Below, in pieces: positions 246 to 18,293 of a DNA stretch of 19,007 nucleotides. Source of the stretch: Myxococcales bacterium (GTDB taxonomy: Bacteria; Myxococcota_A; UBA9042); contig JBBISH010000119.1 of the NCBI GenBank assembly GCA_037441385.1, positions 1 through 19,007 of the forward strand. The letters run 5' to 3'. The notes beneath the pieces are model-generated. The model made no database searches. It had not been told where the DNA came from and was given only the letters and a program-made list of their open reading frames with translations. Numbering within the stretch: position 1 is the first letter of the stretch; every line of letters begins with the position of its first letter. The position numbers and the translations under genes are program-made.

Positions 246-377
246 CACGCACGCTACCGGATTCACCCGTGTACGGCTTCCATGACCCGGTCTGCAGCTG
301 GCAAGAGTCAGGCGGGATCCCTGGTTCAGGCCGGAACAATTGCCGAAGTTTTCTGGCCAGTTCCAGCGGATTCCGTG
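246..377 (+). mobile_element. Family A 132-bp MITE-like element, copy 1 (divergent)
   Basis: Aligns with the other copies. Ends CACG...CGTG. TGA direct repeats at 243-245 and 378-380. Confidence 0.85.
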
Positions 378-6001: not shown

Positions 6002-6133
6002 TGCGGTTTCCGTCCAAATCGGCTCGAAAACTTCGGCAATTCTTCGGGCCCGAGCCGGGGTCCCCGCCTGATTCTCGCCGGTTGCAGACCGGGTCAGAGA
6101 AACCGTACAGGCGTGAATCAGACGGGGTTCGTA
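6002..6133 (-). mobile_element. Family A 132-bp element, copy 2
   Basis: Reverse-orientation full copy. TGA direct repeats at 5999-6001 and 6134-6136. Confidence 0.9.
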
Positions 6134-8755: not shown

Positions 8756-8769
8756 CTCCCACTCCGTAA

Positions 8770-8834
8770 TACGGTTTCCGTCCAAATCGGCTCGAAAACT
8801 TCGGCAATTCTTCGGGCCCGAACCGGGGTTCGTC
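8770..8834 (-). mobile_element. Family A element, copy 3 (65 bp, internally deleted)
   Basis: Both termini are present (TACGGTTTCCG... and ...GGGGTTCGTC). TAA direct repeats at 8767-8769 and 8835-8837. It lacks the 67 bp between the two CGGGGT motifs seen in copy 2. Confidence 0.85.
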
Positions 8835-10259: not shown

Positions 10260-10424
10260 CTAGAACACCAATCACGAATCTCCGAGGTTCAGAGCAACGA
10301 GAGCACTCGCTGACGAAAACTCGTGGATGCTCAGTGGGTCGCAAGCGGGCGCCCCAGAGCCCTGCACTGCCGCGACCCGCCGCGACGTTTGCCCCCAGGA
10401 CTGGGTTTCTGATCGGTGCTCTAG
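10260..10424. mobile_element. Family B CTAG-bounded MITE-like element, copy 1
   Basis: Terminal inverted repeats CTAGAACACCAATC...GATCGGTGCTCTAG; closely similar to 12605-12754. Confidence 0.8.
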
Positions 10425-10556
10425 CCACGGGCCGCGCCGTACCGCCGACCACAGGGGCCTGCGCGGCGAGCGGGATGAACCCAGCGGGCCGCAGGTGCGG
10501 CATCGGCCAGTTGTGGCCCGCAGCCACCGGCGCTACCCTGCTCCCCGGAGGTGGCC

Positions 10557-11738
10557 ATGCTCGAACTCCGCATTCCATCGGTCCTTGGCTGGTCTTCCGT
10601 GATCTTGGGAGCGGCGGCGTGCGTTGCGACGTCCACGGGCAGTAGCGGCGGCGGGGGCGGCGGGGCCGCTGTGGTCCCGGTAAACGGCGGCGCGGTGGCC
10701 AGCGCCTGCACGCAAGAGGACCAAATCGGCTGCGCCCCCGGCTCGCTGATCCGCGTCCGCTGCAAAGGCGGCGCCTGGACCCAGGAAGAGGTCTGCAGCA
10801 CCGGCAAGGCCTGCACCGAAACCTTGGATCCGCAAGGTAAAGTCACGGCCACCGTCTGCGCCATGCCCGTCACCAGCCGCGAATCCAAAGCGATCCTGTG
10901 TGCGCGGGCTAGCGCGTGCGTCAAGCCGATGACCTTCTCGGAGTGCATGAACCCGCCAACCTCGACCCTCATCAGCAAACAGATCGCCGTGTCCGGCTTG
11001 ACCGGCCCCGAAGACCTGCTCGCCACGCAAGTCGACGCTCGCTCGGCCTGCCTCCTGGCCGCGACGGATTGCAAGGCGGTGCAGGCGTGCTTTGCCGCGG
11101 GTGTTACAGCCTGCGAAAGCAACACGGCGGACTCGTGCGTGGGTTCCGTCGCGCGCATTTGCACGGGCGGCGCCACCTACTCGGTGGATTGCGCGAGCGT
11201 GGGCCTCCCCTGCACCTCGGTCAAAGCCGGCGGTGTGGGCATCTTGACCTGCGGCAGCCTGCCCACCTGTACGCAGCTCGGTACCGCGACGTGCAACGGC
11301 TCGGTTGCGCAAGGTTGCATCGGTTTGGACAAGACCACCGGGGTGCAGATCAAGGTCGATTGCGGTGTATTGGGCGGCACTTGCACGGCTTCGGGTCAGC
11401 TCAGCCTGGACCCCAACTCGGTGTGCCAGGTGGGCCCGGGCGGCGCCTGCGACGAAGCGACCTTTGTCCCCACCTGCCAAGGCAACAGTCTGAAAGCGTG
11501 TGTCAAAGGCAAGTTGCAGCAACTCGACTGCAGCTTGGTGGCCGGCACTTGCGCCCTCTCGACTGACGCCGACGGCAAGCCGGTCGCCGAATGCACGGCC
11601 ACGCCCAACTGCCCAAGCTCGCTGCCCAATGACTGCGCCGGGAACGCGGTGCAGTTCTGCGACGGCAGCCTGGGCGCGCGGTCTTTTGATTGCACCAAGG
11701 CCGGACTGAAGTGCAGCAGCGGCAAGTGTCAGTTTTGA
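10557..11738 (+). CDS. Cys-rich repeat lipoprotein, 393 aa
   Basis: GGAGG at 10547-10551, lipobox LGAAA-C, Gly-rich linker, repeated C-x-G-x(4-5)-C...DC-x4-C modules. Confidence 0.85.
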   Translation: MLELRIPSVLGWSSVILGAAACVATSTGSSGGGGGGAAVVPVNGGAVASACTQEDQIGCAPGSLIRVRCKGGAWTQEEVCSTGKACTETLDPQGKVTATVCAMPVTSRESKAILCARASACVKPMTFSECMNPPTSTLISKQIAVSGLTGPEDLLATQVDARSACLLAATDCKAVQACFAAGVTACESNTADSCVGSVARICTGGATYSVDCASVGLPCTSVKAGGVGILTCGSLPTCTQLGTATCNGSVAQGCIGLDKTTGVQIKVDCGVLGGTCTASGQLSLDPNSVCQVGPGGACDEATFVPTCQGNSLKACVKGKLQQLDCSLVAGTCALSTDADGKPVAECTATPNCPSSLPNDCAGNAVQFCDGSLGARSFDCTKAGLKCSSGKCQF

Positions 11739-11843
11739 ACGAGCCAAAGCCCGTTTCTCATTGAGCAGTTGCGTGTCTTTGCCGCGCCGTGCCCCCCTGC
11801 CGAACGTCGGCGCCAAGGATCGCGGCTGGGCAGGGATACGACC

Positions 11844-11872
11844 TTCGCATTTGGCCCGCCTGACGCTATGCT
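11844..11872 (+). promoter_or_regulatory. Possible sigma70 promoter of the two-component operon
   Basis: TTCGCA-N17-TATGCT, 34 nt upstream of ATG 11907. Confidence 0.35.
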
Positions 11873-11906: not shown

Positions 11907-12608
11907 ATGGCCACGTTGCTGCTGGTCGATGATGATCGCAACCTGTTGGAATTGCTTAGCATGGCCTGCGAGGACGCTGGGCACCGCATCCTCACGGCCG
12001 GCGATGGCCGCAGCGGGCTCGAAGTCGTCAAGCGCGAGGCGGTCGATCTGGTCATCGCCGACGTCAACATGCCGATCGTCGACGGGTTTACTTTGGTTCG
12101 CCGCCTGCGCGAGGCCGGCGCCGCGGTCCCGGTGATCCTGCTGACCGCCCGCGACCACGAGGTGGACGAAGCGCTGGGCCTGGAACTCGGTGCCGACGAC
12201 TATGTGGCCAAACCCTACAATACACGGCTGCTTTTGGCGCGGGTAGCGGCGCTGCTCCGGCGCGACCAGCTGCGCGGGCGCAACGACGGCACGCCGCGGT
12301 TGCAGCACGGCCACCTCACCTGGGACACCGAGCGCCTGGAAGTGCGGTGGCGCGACCAGCTGCTGCCGATGACCGTGAGTGAATTCCGGCTGGTCGAGGC
12401 GCTGGTGCGCCGACCGGGCGTCGTGCTGAGTCGCGAAAAGCTGATGGATCTGGTGCGGGGCGACGACAGCGTAGTCGGCGAGCGCATCATCGACACGTGG
12501 GTCCGGCGTCTGCGGCGCAAATTCGAGGGTGCGGACGCCAGCTTTGATCGCATCGACACCGTGGTGGGCGCCGGCTACCGCTGGCGCAGTGACGGCGAAA
12601 CACGCTAG
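11907..12608 (+). CDS. OmpR/PhoB-family response regulator (ChvI/CreB-like), 233 aa
   Basis: Receiver domain LLVDDD...IADVNMP...LLTAR...GADDYVAKP; winged-helix domain TVSEFRLVEALVRRPGVVLSREKL...RRLRRKF...IDTVVGAGYRW. Confidence 0.95.
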   Translation: MATLLLVDDDRNLLELLSMACEDAGHRILTAGDGRSGLEVVKREAVDLVIADVNMPIVDGFTLVRRLREAGAAVPVILLTARDHEVDEALGLELGADDYVAKPYNTRLLLARVAALLRRDQLRGRNDGTPRLQHGHLTWDTERLEVRWRDQLLPMTVSEFRLVEALVRRPGVVLSREKLMDLVRGDDSVVGERIIDTWVRRLRRKFEGADASFDRIDTVVGAGYRWRSDGETR

Positions 12609-12754
12609 AACACCCATCGCAAATCTCCGAGGTCCAGAGCAACGCAACCACTCGCTGACGAAGACTCGTTGATGCTCAGTGGGTCGCAAGCCGGCGCTCG
12701 CGCGACCCGCCGCGACGTTTGCCCGCAGATCCGGGGTTCTGATCGGTGCTCCAG
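12605..12754. mobile_element. Family B MITE-like element, copy 2
   Basis: CTAGAACACCCATC...GATCGGTGCTCCAG, 15 bp shorter than copy 1. Its left CTAG contains the regulator's TAG stop. Confidence 0.8.
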
Positions 12755-12851
12755 GCGCGAGTCGGACTATCCCGACACGCTCCTAGTCGCACCCAAGCCG
12801 GCGAAGGTACTGGACCTGGACTTGCCCGTTGGCGGGCCGCGGTGAGGTAGC

Positions 12852-13946
12852 ATGGGACGGAGCCCACCCCCAGAGACCCACCTGCCTGCGCCCCGTGCCC
12901 GGCCGCTGTGGCCCCAGCGGCGCCGTGGGTGGTTGCGTTCGCTGCGGTTGCGGGCCCTGCTGGTGACCGTGGCGGTGGCGCTGTGGCCGCTGGCGGTGTG
13001 GCAAGAGCTGGGCTGGCGAGCCTGGCTGGCGCAGGTGCTGCCGGTCGCGCTGGGGCTGGGTTGGTGGTTGGGTTGGCGCATGGTGCGACCCATCGAACTG
13101 CTCAACGATCAAGCTCAGCGCCGCAGTGGGCCGGCGGCCGACGACTTTGACCTGGACCCGCACCGCAGCGACGAGTTTGGCGAGTTGGCGGCTTCGCTCA
13201 ATGGCTTGCTGCATCGCCTGGACCAGCGGTCGCAAGCCAACGCGCGCTTTACGGCCGACGTGGCCCACGAACTGAAGAATCAGCTCGCGGCGGTACGCGG
13301 GGTGGCCGAACGTCTGCGCGACGGGCCGCCCAGCGCCGAACGGGCGGCGCGCCTGGCCGAGATCCTGTTGGGAAGCTCGCGCCGCCTGAATGAATTGGTT
13401 AGTGATTTATTGGAGTTGACACGTGCCGAGGCCGGTATGCCCGGCGAAACCCGGCAACGGGTCGACCTGGCGAGCTTGTGCACCGCCTTGGTGGCGCAAC
13501 TGGCCGCGGACCCGCGCTGGAGCGAGCGGCTGACGTTGACGGCGAGCGCGCCGCAGTCGCTCTACGCCGACGGGGTGGCCGTGCGCCTGGAGGCGGCGAT
13601 TCGCAATCTGATTGAAAACGCTTGCCATTTTGCCGTACGCCATGTCGCAGTCCACGTCGAGTCGAGCGGAGATCGGGTGCGCATCACGGTCGCCGACGAT
13701 GGACCGGGTGTTCCGCCCGAGCAAGCAAACCAAGTGTTCGAGCGCTTCTACACCACCCGGCCGGGCCAGGGCACTGGGCTGGGGCTGCCGCTGGTGCGGG
13801 CGATTGCCGAGGGTCATGGTGGAGTTGCGATGCTGTTGCCGGTTCGCGAGGGGGCGACGTTTGCCCTGGAGCTCCCGCTGGCGACCGAGCTCGAAACGGG
13901 CGCCCCGGCTGCCCCGGCTCGTATGTCGGATACCAACCTCGTCTGA
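12852..13946 (+). CDS. Sensor histidine kinase (2 TM, HAMP, HisKA, HATPase), ChvG/CreC-like
   Basis: HAMP (RPIELL...DEFGELAASLN), H-box ADVAHELKNQL, N-box NLIENA, G1 DDGPG, F-box FERFY, G2 GTGLGL. Confidence 0.93.
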   Translation: MGRSPPPETHLPAPRARPLWPQRRRGWLRSLRLRALLVTVAVALWPLAVWQELGWRAWLAQVLPVALGLGWWLGWRMVRPIELLNDQAQRRSGPAADDFDLDPHRSDEFGELAASLNGLLHRLDQRSQANARFTADVAHELKNQLAAVRGVAERLRDGPPSAERAARLAEILLGSSRRLNELVSDLLELTRAEAGMPGETRQRVDLASLCTALVAQLAADPRWSERLTLTASAPQSLYADGVAVRLEAAIRNLIENACHFAVRHVAVHVESSGDRVRITVADDGPGVPPEQANQVFERFYTTRPGQGTGLGLPLVRAIAEGHGGVAMLLPVREGATFALELPLATELETGAPAAPARMSDTNLV

Positions 13947-14062
13947 TTCACGCCTGTACGGTTTCTCTGACCCGGTCTGCAACCGGCGAGAATCAGGCGG
14001 GTACTCCGGTTCGGGCCCGAAGAATTGCCGGAGTTTTCGAGCTGAATTAGGCGGATTCCGTA
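13931..14062 (+). mobile_element. Family A 132-bp element, copy 4
   Basis: Full copy with GGA direct repeats at 13928-13930 and 14063-14065; overlaps the kinase 3' end. Confidence 0.9.
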
Positions 14063-14104
14063 GGAGCAGCGGCAGCCGGGTCGCGCTGGCGCGCGGCTGC
14101 TGGG

Positions 14105-15250
14105 TCAGTCGCGCTGTGCCTTGGGGCAGGTCCACTGCGGCTCGGGGTAGCTGGCGCCGCTGCCGAAGTCGCTGATCAGGTCGACACGGCCGCTGATGCT
14201 GCGGTCGCGGCGGCGCAGTTCGTGGGCCATCGATCCCGCCAGTTCGCCTTGCCACAGATAGGCCAAGCTGCCGCGGTGCGAGTCCATGTCCCAATGGGCG
14301 GTCGAGCCGCGCAGCGCCTGGATATCAAAACCAAAGCTGCTCGCCACCAAGGTCGCCAGCGGCGTGGCCGGGCCGCGGATGTCCATCTGCAGGTGGGCGG
14401 CGCCGTAGTCGCGCTCCACGCTGCCCTCGGCCGTCATCACCAAGTCGGTCAGGTTGCCAAAAGGGCCGAATACGCCGGGCTTGGCCGTGCCCATCGCCAC
14501 CTCGGCAAAGTCCCACAGCGACGCGTCGAACGCGATCGGGTTGGGCACGGTGCCGTCGGGCCCCGCCAAGATGTGGCCCAGCGGGCCAAGCGCTTCATAA
14601 GAGAACTCATAGTGATTCTTGGCCTCCATGCTGCCCCGCATTTCCTTGAAGCTCAGGCTGGTGGTCACCTTGGCGCCCACCAAGTAGGCGTCGAGCTCGA
14701 AGGGATTGGCCAGGATCAGCGCGCCGACTTGGCCTTTGCCGGCGGGTTGCAGCAGCGGGTCGTGGAACGACACCCAGAAGTCCATGCTGGACAGGGGGCC
14801 GGGCACGCTGACGTGCCAACGGCCGCCGTCGTGGCTCAGCGAAGAGGCGTCGATCATCAGGCCCAGGCCCTTGGCCAGTTCTTTGAGCTGGGCGACGGTC
14901 GCGTCCTCAAAGCCAAACGCCGCTTGGTTGCTGAGGAACACGGCCACCAGAAGGCTCTGCGCCAGGCGGGTCTGGGTCTGGCCGCAGGCCACCAGCTCGT
15001 GCAGGCAGCTGCCCGCCGCGTCGCCCAGCTCCGCCAACTCGGCCTCGTCACTCTGCGGCAGACCGCACACCATCGAGCCAGCGAAGGTGGAATTGGCGTC
15101 GTTGTTGGGGGGCTGGCTCCAGGTCTGGGTCGGATACGTCGGCCCGCCCGACGCCTTGACGGGCTCTGTGTCCACGGCGCAGGCAGACAGCGTAACGCCG
15201 CAAAGGATTGCCACAATTCCCCGCTCGATGGTGCCAGCAAAACGCAACAT
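14105..15250 (-). CDS. Lipoprotein of unknown function, 381 aa
   Basis: GGAGG shortly upstream of the ATG (GCGGAGGTACACATG on the minus strand), lipobox TLSA-C, globular-looking composition. Confidence 0.85.
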   Translation of the reverse strand: MLRFAGTIERGIVAILCGVTLSACAVDTEPVKASGGPTYPTQTWSQPPNNDANSTFAGSMVCGLPQSDEAELAELGDAAGSCLHELVACGQTQTRLAQSLLVAVFLSNQAAFGFEDATVAQLKELAKGLGLMIDASSLSHDGGRWHVSVPGPLSSMDFWVSFHDPLLQPAGKGQVGALILANPFELDAYLVGAKVTTSLSFKEMRGSMEAKNHYEFSYEALGPLGHILAGPDGTVPNPIAFDASLWDFAEVAMGTAKPGVFGPFGNLTDLVMTAEGSVERDYGAAHLQMDIRGPATPLATLVASSFGFDIQALRGSTAHWDMDSHRGSLAYLWQGELAGSMAHELRRRDRSISGRVDLISDFGSGASYPEPQWTCPKAQRD

Positions 15251-15340
15251 GTGTACCTCCGCGGCGGTCGGTCCCCAACTGCGGGGCGTCGTGCCGTGGA
15301 GTCACCTTGCCCGTCCCCTTTGAACGCCCAAGCGCGGCCA

Positions 15341-15362
15341 TGTGAATCGTGTGTGAATCGTG
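15341..15362 (-). promoter_or_regulatory. 11-bp tandem direct repeat containing a perfect cre-tag (TTCAC-N6-TTCAC)
   Basis: TGTGAATCGTG x2 on the + strand, equal to TTCACacacgaTTCAC (15357-15342) on the - strand, ~90 nt upstream of ATG 15250. Confidence 0.65.
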
Positions 15363-15468
15363 GCGGACGCGGAGTAGTCGGCCGCGCCGTGCAGTTGCCG
15401 CTGGGTGTTGCCCCGGCGTAGCCTATGGTCTGTGGAACGCAGCGAGTGCGGGAGCTTGGACCACATGA

Positions 15469-15600
15469 TACGCACCCCACCTGATTCGCGCCTGTACGAC
15501 TTTTCTGATCCGTTCTGCAACTGGCGAGAATCAGGCGGGGACCCCGGTTCGGGCCCGAAGAACTGCCCGAGTTTTCGATCCGATTCGGACGGAATTGGCA
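15469..15600 (+). mobile_element. Family A 132-bp element, copy 5
   Basis: Full copy with TGA direct repeats at 15466-15468 and 15601-15603. Confidence 0.9.
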
Positions 15601-16499
15601 TGAGCGCAAGAAGGCCGCCGATGGCGCGACGCCGCTGGGTAGGGATTGGGGTGCTGGCCGCCAGTTGCTGGCTTGCTCTGGCTGCGCCCGTCCGGGCAGG
15701 CGAGCCCGGCGAGGTGAGTTGGCTGACGCGCCCTGCGCGGCTCAGCGTGCAGCACAGCGGGCCGATGGGGCAGCATCAGCTGTGGGCCTTGGACGATGGG
15801 CGCGTAGTCACCCTGGAATGGATCAGCGGTTCGATGGAACTAGGGCCTGCCGACCAGGGGCCGACCGCCAGCCTGTGCCGCGTGCCCGCCGCCCAAGTGG
15901 CCAAGGCCGTCGCTGCACTGCGGCGCGGTAGTCTGTGCAAAACTCCTAGCAATTCAGGTAATTCAGTGGGCGGTGCCATCGCCATCGCGGCCGATCTGGG
16001 CGACGGCCAGCACTGCGTGGTCCGCCGGCGATCGCGCACCTGGAGCGCCGCCGACAGCAAGCTGTTGAGCCAGGTGGAAAACCTTGTCCACAGCGGGACT
16101 TGCGTGGCATTGCCGGACGAGGTGAGCGCGGCGGCCCTGGGGGCCATGCCCAAACTGGACCCGCAGGTCGAATGGCTCCAGGGGGGCACCCTGACGGAGT
16201 CTTTCGGCTTTGACCCGACCGGCGAACTGCTGGCCTGGCAATTCTTGCAGCCGCTGCCGCAGCGCAGCGTCCAGGCCGCCTTGGCCCAGCAGGCCGCCGA
16301 GCTGGCAAATCGCCTGCGGAGCGTACCCTGTCAACCGAACGTGCAAGATGGCCGCGAGGGCGAGGTTCAAGTGCGCGTACGTATGGGCAAAGTCGGCCTT
16401 GGCCCCTGGAACGCGGCCACCTGGCAGCGGTCGCCTTGCTTGCAGCCCGTGTGGCGGTGGCTCCATGCGCTGCGGGCGCCGGCCCAGGGTGACAAGTAG
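15600..16499 (+). CDS. Secreted protein of unknown function, ~299 aa
   Basis: Signal peptide RRRWVGIGVLAASCWLALAAPVRA-GE. Alternative starts: ATG 15465 (in frame through the element) and ATG 15621. Confidence 0.7.
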   Translation: MSARRPPMARRRWVGIGVLAASCWLALAAPVRAGEPGEVSWLTRPARLSVQHSGPMGQHQLWALDDGRVVTLEWISGSMELGPADQGPTASLCRVPAAQVAKAVAALRRGSLCKTPSNSGNSVGGAIAIAADLGDGQHCVVRRRSRTWSAADSKLLSQVENLVHSGTCVALPDEVSAAALGAMPKLDPQVEWLQGGTLTESFGFDPTGELLAWQFLQPLPQRSVQAALAQQAAELANRLRSVPCQPNVQDGREGEVQVRVRMGKVGLGPWNAATWQRSPCLQPVWRWLHALRAPAQGDK

Positions 16500-16803: not shown

Positions 16804-16935
16804 AGCCAGATCCACTCGAATCCGCTCGAAGAAGTCGGCGACTCTTGGGTCCTGAACCGGGTTTCCGGCCTGATTCTTGCCAGTTGCAGTGTGAGTCCAA
16901 CAGGCGATGCACGGGCGAATCCGCTGGGGAGCGCA
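16804..16935 (-). mobile_element. Family A 132-bp element, copy 6 (divergent)
   Basis: Degenerate reverse copy of the same length; CCA direct repeats at 16801-16803 and 16936-16938. Confidence 0.8.
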
Positions 16936-16955: not shown

Positions 16956-18293
16956 ATGACCACGCCGCAGTCGCGCTGGCGCCAACGCCTGGCTCGGGCG
17001 CTGGGTGCCGCGTTTCTGTCTGGGCCGTGGCAACACGCCGACCTGGTCGCGCGCGGGGCTGCGTGCCTGGGTGACAAACCGCCATGGTTGTCGATTGCAG
17101 CCCGCTGGACGCGCCACGCCTTCCCGTCGCCTCCCGCCACCGTCGCGCCCGTGGCCGAGCGTCTGTTGCGCTTGCCCTCGTTCCAGGCTGCCACCAGCGG
17201 CCGATCGCCTAAGCCTAGATGCCGCAAAGCCTTCTTGTTCGCTCCGCCGACAACGGCCCCCGCTTTTGGCCTGCCGCCGCTTGCGTCCGAGGCGGCGCTG
17301 GCTCAGTGGCTCGCGGTGCCGGAGCCGCTGCTGGAATGGCTGGCCGATGTGCGCAGCCTGGTCCGCCACAGCAGCGAGTCGCGCCTGCACCACTACCACC
17401 CGCGCTGGTTGCCCAAGCCCCACGGCGGAGTGCGCCTGCTCGAAGAGCCCAAACCCCTGTTGAAGCAGGTGCAACGGCGCTTGTTGGCTGGCCTTCTCGC
17501 CCACTTGCCGCCCCACGCGGCCGCCCATGCGTTCCGCCGCGGCCACTCGGTACTGACTCACGCCGCCGTCCACGCCGGGCAGGCCGTGGTGATTCGCCTT
17601 GATCTTGCGGACTTCTTTGGCAGCATCGGCAGGGGGCGCGTGCGGGCCCTGTTTGAATCGGTGGGCTATCCTCGTCCGGTGGCGGCCGCACTGGCCGGCT
17701 TGTGCACGACTGCCACCCCTCCCAGCGTGGTCGCCCGCTTGCCGCGGCCGGTCGATGCGGCCGAGGTGCCCTTGGTCGCCAGCCAGCGGCGCCACTTGCT
17801 TGCGCCGCACCTGCCGCAGGGTGCGCCCACCTCGCCGGCTGTGGCCAACCTCTGTGCCTGGGAGCTGGACGTGCGCCTTGCCGCGCTGGCCGCTGTGTTT
17901 GGCGCGCGCTACTCGCGCTACGCCGATGATCTCACGTTTTCGGGTAGTTCCGAGGTGGCGCGCCGGGCGAATGCACTCGTCGAGCTTGCGATGTTCGTCG
18001 TCTATTCGTGTGGCTTTGCCGTGCGGCATGGCAAGACGCGGGTGCAGCGCGCGGGCGCTCGCCAAAGGGTGACTGGGCTGGTCGTCAACGAGCGACCGCA
18101 CGTGGCGCGCGCCGAGCGGGACGCGCTGAAAGCGACTCTGCACAACTGCCTGCTCTACGGTCCGGCTGGCCAAAATCGCAACGGCCATCCAGATTTCCGC
18201 GCCTACCTGCTTGGACGGATCGGCTGGGTGGCTGCGGCAGACCCCCACCACGGTGCCAAGCTGCGGGCCCTGTTCGACGGCATTGCATGGTAG
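16956..18293 (+). CDS. Retron-type reverse transcriptase with an N-terminal extension, 445 aa
   Basis: KPHGGVRLLEEPKPLLKQVQR, AHAFRRG, region-X-like HAAVH (17559-17573), DLADFF, LPQGAPTSP, YADD (17919-17930), retron region Y VTGLVVN (from 18069). Confidence 0.93.
   Translation: MTTPQSRWRQRLARALGAAFLSGPWQHADLVARGAACLGDKPPWLSIAARWTRHAFPSPPATVAPVAERLLRLPSFQAATSGRSPKPRCRKAFLFAPPTTAPAFGLPPLASEAALAQWLAVPEPLLEWLADVRSLVRHSSESRLHHYHPRWLPKPHGGVRLLEEPKPLLKQVQRRLLAGLLAHLPPHAAAHAFRRGHSVLTHAAVHAGQAVVIRLDLADFFGSIGRGRVRALFESVGYPRPVAAALAGLCTTATPPSVVARLPRPVDAAEVPLVASQRRHLLAPHLPQGAPTSPAVANLCAWELDVRLAALAAVFGARYSRYADDLTFSGSSEVARRANALVELAMFVVYSCGFAVRHGKTRVQRAGARQRVTGLVVNERPHVARAERDALKATLHNCLLYGPAGQNRNGHPDFRAYLLGRIGWVAAADPHHGAKLRALFDGIAW

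Follow-up and report, generated by a model that had tools for sequence, protein, structure and literature searches.

A MITE-like repeat that duplicates TNA targets and its insertion at a candidate start codon in a Myxococcales genome

Contig JBBISH010000119.1 of a draft Myxococcales genome (GenBank assembly GCA_037441385.1; 6.63 Mb in 221 contigs, 66.9% G+C, 91% complete) was analysed over its whole length of 19,007 nt, referred to here as the window. In our labelling, the genome is G000 and the window is its contig C119. The window carries several copies of a 132-nt repeat, and one of these, copy 5, stands between two TGA triplets in front of an orphan gene, hereafter the host gene. Three ATG codons in one frame could open this gene: one to the left of the element (ATG 15465), one formed at its right-hand junction (ATG 15600) and one a little further downstream (ATG 15621). 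The features of this site, the other copies in the window and three copies found inside genes elsewhere in the genome are listed in Table 1.

Table 1. Copy 5 and its insertion site, other copies of the repeat in the window, and in-frame copies elsewhere in the genome (TSD, target-site duplication).
Feature	Position	Strand	Remarks
GGAG, Shine-Dalgarno-like motif of the pre-insertion site	15451..15454	+	10 nt upstream of ATG 15465; sequence
Upstream ATG, native A plus TG of the left duplication	15465..15467	+	opens the 45-codon frame through the element
Left TSD, TGA	15466..15468	.	TSD TGA/TGA
Copy 5 body, 132 nt	15469..15600	+	two internal hairpins, no coding signature; nhmmer E = 1.9e-46
Regenerated ATG, from the element's terminal A and the TG of the right duplication	15600..15602	+	element's GGAA at -9; followed by AGC GCA
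Right TSD, TGA	15601..15603	.	
AAGAAGG, purine-rich	15608..15614	+	rare Arg codons (AGA AGG) if the start is 15600, or Shine-Dalgarno motif of ATG 15621
Alternative start ATG (MARRRWVGIG...)	15621..15623	+	start of the public gene call
Host gene, orphan	15600..16499	+	299 aa; 292 aa if starting at 15621; open reading frame
Copy 1	246..377	+	TSD TGA/TGA; on probable GTG|A start of CHAT/TPR gene; readable in frame
Copy 2	6002..6133	-	TSD TCA/TCA; intergenic
Half copy	8767..8831	-	model positions 76-140
Copy 4	13931..14062	+	TSD GGA/GGA; in 3' end of histidine-kinase gene
Copy 6, diverged	16804..16935	-	TSD TGG/TGG; upstream of reverse-transcriptase gene
In-frame copy, CheA-like hybrid kinase	G000:C145:6272-6403		in HATPase_c domain
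In-frame copy, 7TMR-DISM hybrid histidine kinase	G000:C17:40524-40657		in HATPase_c, split at profile position 35/36
In-frame copy, Ser/Thr kinase	G000:C10:47751-47880		in C-terminal linker

Removal of the copy 5 body together with one TGA, in all 132 + 3 = 135 bp or 45 codons, restores the empty site gggagcttggaccacATGagcgca, that is GGAG-N10-ATGAGC, just as a preliminary description of this locus had proposed. With the element in place, 45 codons from ATG 15465 (MIRTPPDSRLYDFSDPFCNWRESGGDPGSGPKNCPSFRSDSDGIG) are read without a stop into the regenerated ATG 15600 and on into MSARRPPMARRRW; translation bore this out, and showed the same frame (+2) to be stop-free in all five full copies of the window. 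An antisense frame had been reported as open in copies 2, 4, 5 and 6; it is open, though not restricted to these copies, as frame -2 is open in five of five. The insertion itself is real and has a duplicated start site, while its position exactly on the start codon is uncertain, the public gene call beginning at ATG 15621. With 448 family matches in the genome and with duplicated flanks, copy 5 is a genuine insertion and no chance resemblance.

To define the family, a profile was built from the window copies and searched with nhmmer against the genome contigs, the 448 matches resolving into 437 distinct loci. Both ends are present in 238 copies, of which 194 have a body of exactly 132 nt and 126 have identical flanking triplets, compared with 5 of the 238 for the next triplet outward, used as a control. 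Nearly all of the identical triplets (115 of 126) are of the form T-N-A (TGA, n = 51; TCA, n = 42; TTA, n = 12; TAA, n = 10). Copies have a median identity of 92% to the consensus, which starts with TACG, finishes in GGTA with A as its last base, and folds into two internal hairpins (RNA minimum free energy -53 kcal/mol). Among 31 genomes scanned, the family occurs in G000, is abundant in the congener G007 and gave one weak match in G001. The coaX gene supplies both an empty and a filled site: orthologues in G007 and in a further congener, G005, read uninterrupted through ...ATGAAAGAC..., and in G000 the element sits exactly in that TGA. Copy number, the fixed 132-nt body, the duplicated triplets and the coaX pair show that this is a mobile, gene-less element which duplicates TNA targets, resembling the MITEs (miniature inverted-repeat transposable elements). 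No Rfam family was found for the repeat at gathering thresholds, the sole match in the window being a group II intron catalytic piece (52-122, 43.2 bits), and literature on MITEs, the IS1031 group and myxobacteria yielded no description of it. The repeat belongs to a known element type.

Positions of copies relative to genes were taken from a rough, purpose-made codon-usage caller (4708 genes, 85% of the genome coding), and reconstructed empty sites were classified with a codon log-odds table trained on long open reading frames rich in G+C at third codon positions. By this caller the commonest stop is TAG (TAG 2562, TGA 1675, TAA 471), which is unusual at 67% G+C, and only ~46% of stops are therefore TNA targets. 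In 51 of 209 copies with TNA flanks the duplicated triplet coincided with a called stop codon, the expectation for non-disruptive TNA sites being ~10%; a second method placed stop codons at 57 of the 121 element ends facing a gene's 3' end. At the other end of genes, a junction ATG facing the gene's 5' end was in frame in 16 cases and out of frame in 6 (null expectation 1:2, p = 1.8e-4). Inspection of 20 junction-start cases gave an empty-site codon of ATG, GTG or TTG in 14 and CTG in 6, with a Shine-Dalgarno (SD)-like motif upstream in 10 of the 14 native-start cases. Were start-codon copies as harmless as those at intergenic TNA, 13.0 of 155 would be expected, and 14 were counted (p = 0.42, a rough figure based on the purpose-made gene calls); landing on start codons is thus not targeted but tolerated. 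There was no signal in the orientation of start-abutting copies (10 vs 4, not significant) or in loss of the upstream duplicated start (1 of 14).

Several of these junction starts belong to conserved proteins. In coaX and two response regulators which start at the junction ATG, position 1 of the Pfam profile falls at residue 5, and in a polyphosphate kinase with such a start it falls at residue 18; by these alignments, the junction ATGs mark true N-termini. Reading through the element is not a general property of such sites, as 13 of 19 start-abutting copies are open against ~74% expected from the family, with no enrichment. The remaining six, including those at coaX and at a response regulator, cannot be read through (two contain a stop and four have a body of 131, 133 or 134 nt), hence the junction ATG must work there without read-through. 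Across the genome, GGAG, GAGG or AGGA occurs at -18 to -4 in 52.5% of 748 unambiguous ATG starts and in 6.4% of control windows, GGAG peaking at -10; the GGAG of the copy 5 empty site begins at -14, off this peak yet enriched (9 of 748 starts vs ~1 from background). Duplex energies were calculated against a generic anti-SD core, not one taken from this genome, and have medians of -5.9 kcal/mol at the 748 real starts and -2.5 in controls. Both ends of the element lie within the range of real starts, with -5.7 kcal/mol at the 3' end (stronger than 43% of real starts and 92% of control windows) and -7.7 at the 5' end read outward, and both are predicted to place a motif of SD strength 6-12 nt before the junction ATG.

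The preliminary description saw an analogue in the palindromic elements of Rickettsia, which are typically found inside protein genes, and inferred a repeat tolerated in coding sequence and able to create new protein segments. In its strongest form this would make the repeat a domesticated coding module, kept open by selection and routinely translated. Four of the six frames of the consensus are open, a property which 86–94% of 194 copies inherit, and the body together with its duplication has a length divisible by three. Open frames are, however, no more frequent than chance allows: single frames are open in 23.5% of mononucleotide shuffles and in 60% of random genomic 132-mers, and plus and minus frames of so nearly palindromic an element are not independent, so that the relevant event, two of three independent frames open, has a probability of ~0.14 (calculated from the shuffle rate). 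No bias towards a codon position was seen among substitutions (divergence from the consensus by phase 0.081, 0.113 and 0.105; 186 copies, Kruskal p = 0.88), and the ratio of synonymous to non-synonymous changes was 564:1036 in the frame proposed as coding and 532:1068 in a stop-containing frame, and alike in all six. Codon usage in the proposed frame is also non-coding-like, with a median log-odds of -0.34 for the family and -0.14 for copy 5, compared with 0.14 at the 5th percentile of genes.

Where copies are found points the same way. Of 229 classified empty sites, 140 were non-coding on both sides, 75 fell at the margin of a gene, 10 separated coding segments in different frames (gene pairs that converge, diverge or stand in tandem) and only four were classed as intragenic. 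On inspection these four fell between genes in tandem, a stop being present at the border of the element. Among random controls, 56% of 3000 sites and 58.5% of 3000 TNA sites were intragenic. The threshold of this classifier passed over in-frame insertions in kinases, which were recovered when all 437 loci were compared with the gene calls: 318 fall outside genes, 111 extend over the edge of a gene and eight are internal, three of the eight being deep, stop-free and in frame (the kinases of Table 1). About half of all copies would be expected in genes if such insertions were neutral, as 135 nt preserves the frame and four of six combinations of frame and orientation are open; the actual share deep inside genes is under 1%. 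In a search of 5.8 billion proteins, the 45-residue peptide was found in one longer protein, at residues 750-794 of an annotated 840-residue DUF2330 protein of the same genome. As a rule the Rickettsia analogy does not stand, and it applies to just three rare copies, since the family is almost excluded from genes and shows no coding constraint; general tolerance in coding sequence is not what we observe, and of the creation of new protein segments there remain a possible 45-residue extension and the kinase copies, with no coding signature. The idea of a domesticated coding module is largely refuted, and we consider it very improbable.

We interpret copy 5 as one insertion of a high-copy, gene-less, MITE-like repeat, in which the start was rebuilt as a by-product of insertion (probability about 0.75). 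A staggered cut at a 3-bp T-N-A target would duplicate this target upon insertion, the target here being the TGA of ...GGAG-N10-A|TGA|GC.... At the right junction, the terminal A of the element joins TG to rebuild an ATG before an untouched reading frame, and at the left junction the old A and TG are kept behind the old ribosome-binding site. As the element ends in A and duplicates TG, an ATG is rebuilt at any NTG|A target, even from GTG or TTG, and the regenerated ATG needs no special mechanism beyond the terminal A and the TNA duplication. Both the length of 135 nt and the absence of stops from the frame come from the family consensus and are no adaptation of copy 5. Purifying selection would remove the element almost everywhere inside genes, sparing intergenic copies and those at stop codons or NTG|A starts, where the gene stays intact. 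The host gene would still be expressed from a downstream start, either ATG 15600, served by the motif of SD strength at the end of the element, or ATG 15621, served by an AAGG of its own, and the 45-codon frame from ATG 15465 would be a fortuitous leader which may or may not be translated.

The host protein has no Pfam family, and the protein search returned only two proteins, the window's own and one relative from G007 (labelled a deltaproteobacterial metagenome-assembled genome) which starts at residue 84, cut by a contig end. The public gene call, 292 residues long and 100% identical, covers 85% of the 344-residue query and starts at 15621. To judge by inspection of the sequence alone, the N-terminus from 15600 or 15621 looks signal-peptide-like, and the protein is probably secreted. 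Anti-SD energies are -6.6 kcal/mol for ATG 15465 with its native GGAG, -5.7 for ATG 15600 with the GGAA of the element and -4.5 for ATG 15621, whose AAGG lies at -10, an enriched position at real starts. A predicted RNA fold of 15400-15700 did not discriminate among the three; the unpaired fraction was 0.50 for the SD zone and 0.83 for the start codon of ATG 15465, and 0.69 for the SD zone of ATG 15621, the most open. The seven codons from 15600 to 15620, which include GCA, AGA (-4.55) and AGG (-3.45), have a summed log-odds of -9.4 bits. Neither a terminator-like site nor, by a consensus scan alone, a sigma-70-like promoter was found in 15200-15700.

Gene call and rare codons favour ATG 15621, with AAGAAGG as its putative ribosome-binding site. 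If this is the start, then the element landed 21 nt upstream, on a TGA of the leader, ATG 15600 was never a start and the in-frame ATGA is coincidental. This account comes close to an even chance without reaching it: it has the favoured SD position and the most open SD zone, but also the weakest anti-SD energy of the three, and it leaves unexplained that ATG 15600 is in frame with a GGAG upstream before insertion and that the junction ATGs of the family are in frame more often than chance (16 vs 6). Rare codons, moreover, are common among the first codons of genes. A different outcome, which we think unlikely on balance, is that the extension is made, with initiation at ATG 15465, 45 codons of the element and a protein of 344 residues in which the signal-peptide-like segment lies internally. 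Up to +4, ATG 15465 has kept the initiation context it had before insertion, its anti-SD energy is the strongest, and prediction leaves its SD zone and start codon fairly accessible; the frame is open, as it is in 13 of 19 start-abutting copies, the three in-frame kinase copies imply that the peptide can be tolerated, and fusions of MITE frames to gene ends are described in reviews of these elements (PMC2229807, PMC3184786). Against it, an acidic leader of 45 residues rich in Pro, Gly and Ser, placed before a signal-peptide-like N-terminus, would probably block export, codon usage is non-coding-like with no coding constraint in the element, the public gene call starts at 15621 and six of 19 comparable insertions work without read-through.

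A bolder version of the by-product interpretation would have both ends of the element work as a translation start that travels with it, in which a motif of SD strength precedes the terminal A that completes ATG, landing on NTG|A is free, and the readable copies (about two-thirds) also give an isoform extended by 45 residues at the N-terminus from the old start. We hold this to be improbable. If true, GTG and TTG starts would be converted to ATG at no cost, and this myxobacterial lineage would be continually supplied with novel N-terminal peptides and, on rare occasions, with loops inside kinases.

Several points weigh against our interpretation of copy 5 as a MITE-like insertion that rebuilt a start. 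The host gene has no empty-site orthologue, its only relative ending at a contig edge, so the case for ATG 15600 as the native start is the reconstructed GGAG-N10-ATG together with the frame. Assembled contigs of three DNA runs showed no joint skipping the element; contigs break inside the repeat, and this observation carries no weight for or against an empty allele. At 15465 the old SD motif and start codon persist unaltered and give the best anti-SD energy, which makes translation of the 45-residue extension a real possibility. The terminal inverted repeats are only weakly developed, with 11 of 25 positions pairing in the consensus (TAC...GTA and scattered matches). The census figures are limited by the rough gene calls and coding classes, and the duplex energies by the generic core. 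Finally, no longer autonomous element with the ends of the repeat was found in this draft genome, which is 91% complete with its insertion sequences (ISs) collapsed at contig ends, and a multi-copy IS of this genome that duplicates TNA has ends of another kind.

The search for a parent covered the ends of the repeat and transposase families. Degenerate matches to the 5' end outside known copies numbered 19, with no long element among them; PF01609 gave two loci, both lacking the repeat's ends, and PF13359 had no match in the genome. Through PF13586 we reached an IS that is present in multiple copies, at 16 or more contig ends; it has a DDE_Tnp_1_2 C-terminus, bears the ends GAGGGTGTGTACA and duplicates TNA triplets. 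As a parent it was rejected on its ends (GAG... against TACGMACCCC in the repeat), which share only an inverted resemblance of ~9 nt. TNA is the target triplet of the IS1031 group. At six of 16 IS-bearing contig ends, the IS and a copy of the repeat meet exactly at the triplet which the repeat has duplicated, which suggests a shared target preference or a transposase that recognises the repeat. This IS5-family (IS1031-like) element is a candidate mobiliser of the repeat. The IS also breaks the assembly, for example at C156:1-200, C174:1-200, C28:57140-57329 and C158:11867-12056.

Copy 1 (243-380) is probably a second start-codon case in the window. Its empty site is gaggccagatGTGatgtcg, with GAGG at -10, in front of a CHAT/TPR gene of 1700 residues; the 45-codon frame is likewise readable, and the junction reads GTG ATG because the terminal A has mutated to G. 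At copy 4 (13928-14065), with its unusual GGA duplication, a HAMP/HisKA/HATPase_c kinase gene stops five codons into the element, and in the reconstructed empty site its frame would run 28 codons further. Just downstream of the diverged copy 6 there is a reverse-transcriptase open reading frame (near 16968-18293; RVT_1, E = 2e-13). A second repeat of ~175 nt occurs at 10260-10434 and 12605-12764 (81–85% identity), upstream of two genes, and part of it is also found beside an IS end on G000:C158 (near 11700-11860); it may be another interspersed family.

The repeat is largely comparable to known bacterial MITEs, which in the reviews by Delihas include Correia/NEMIS of Neisseria, ERIC, RUP, BOX and Nezha (PMC2229807, PMC3184786). 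It shares with them its length of 132 nt, hundreds of copies, the lack of a transposase gene, target duplication, stable hairpins and a mainly intergenic distribution, but differs in its weak terminal inverted repeats, in a TNA rather than TA target and in its uncultured myxobacterial host. A 3-bp duplication is shared with the IS1031 group of the IS5 family, which has DDE transposases, and with PIF/Harbinger elements; a three-nucleotide target is given as typical of the IS1031 group (PMC2516522), although the repeat's ends differ from the inverted repeat of the IS1031-type IS in this genome. With Rickettsia palindromic elements it has in common its palindromic structure, a frame-preserving length and the three in-frame kinase copies, but unlike them it is almost excluded from genes (3 of 437) and shows no coding constraint. 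The same reviews report in-frame fusions of MITE frames to gene termini, both 5' and 3', REP2 repeats of Neisseria which carry a ribosome-binding site and ATG, and MIRUs with ends that overlap adjacent genes (PMC2229807, PMC3184786). Upstream repeats of Borrelia likewise carry a ribosome-binding site and ATG, and the ends of mycobacterial MIRUs overlap neighbouring stop and start codons. In pneumococcus the stop codon of 36 genes is reported to come from a BOX repeat (PMC3049150). Like REP2, the Borrelia repeats and MIRUs, our repeat lies directly upstream of genes and supplies part of a translation start; unlike REP2, it gives only the A of ATG, no promoter-like site was found in copy 5, and it is clearly mobile, with target duplications.

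Copy 5 does what its insertion chemistry predicts and represents no new way of making protein; MITE behaviour at gene ends is already in print, and the repeat family itself is undescribed in the literature found. For annotation of repeat-rich, GC-rich genomes a rule follows: a TNA-duplicating element which ends in A rebuilds start and stop codons, and open reading frames running through such repeats, such as the 364- and 344-residue versions of this gene, are for that reason usually gene-calling artefacts and not new protein. Insertions exactly on the starts of conserved genes (coaX and two response regulators) appear to be as tolerated as intergenic ones, which makes it testable whether the element's ends have translation-start activity, and the in-frame copies that two histidine kinases carry in their ATPase domains are natural loop insertions of 45 residues, open to functional study.

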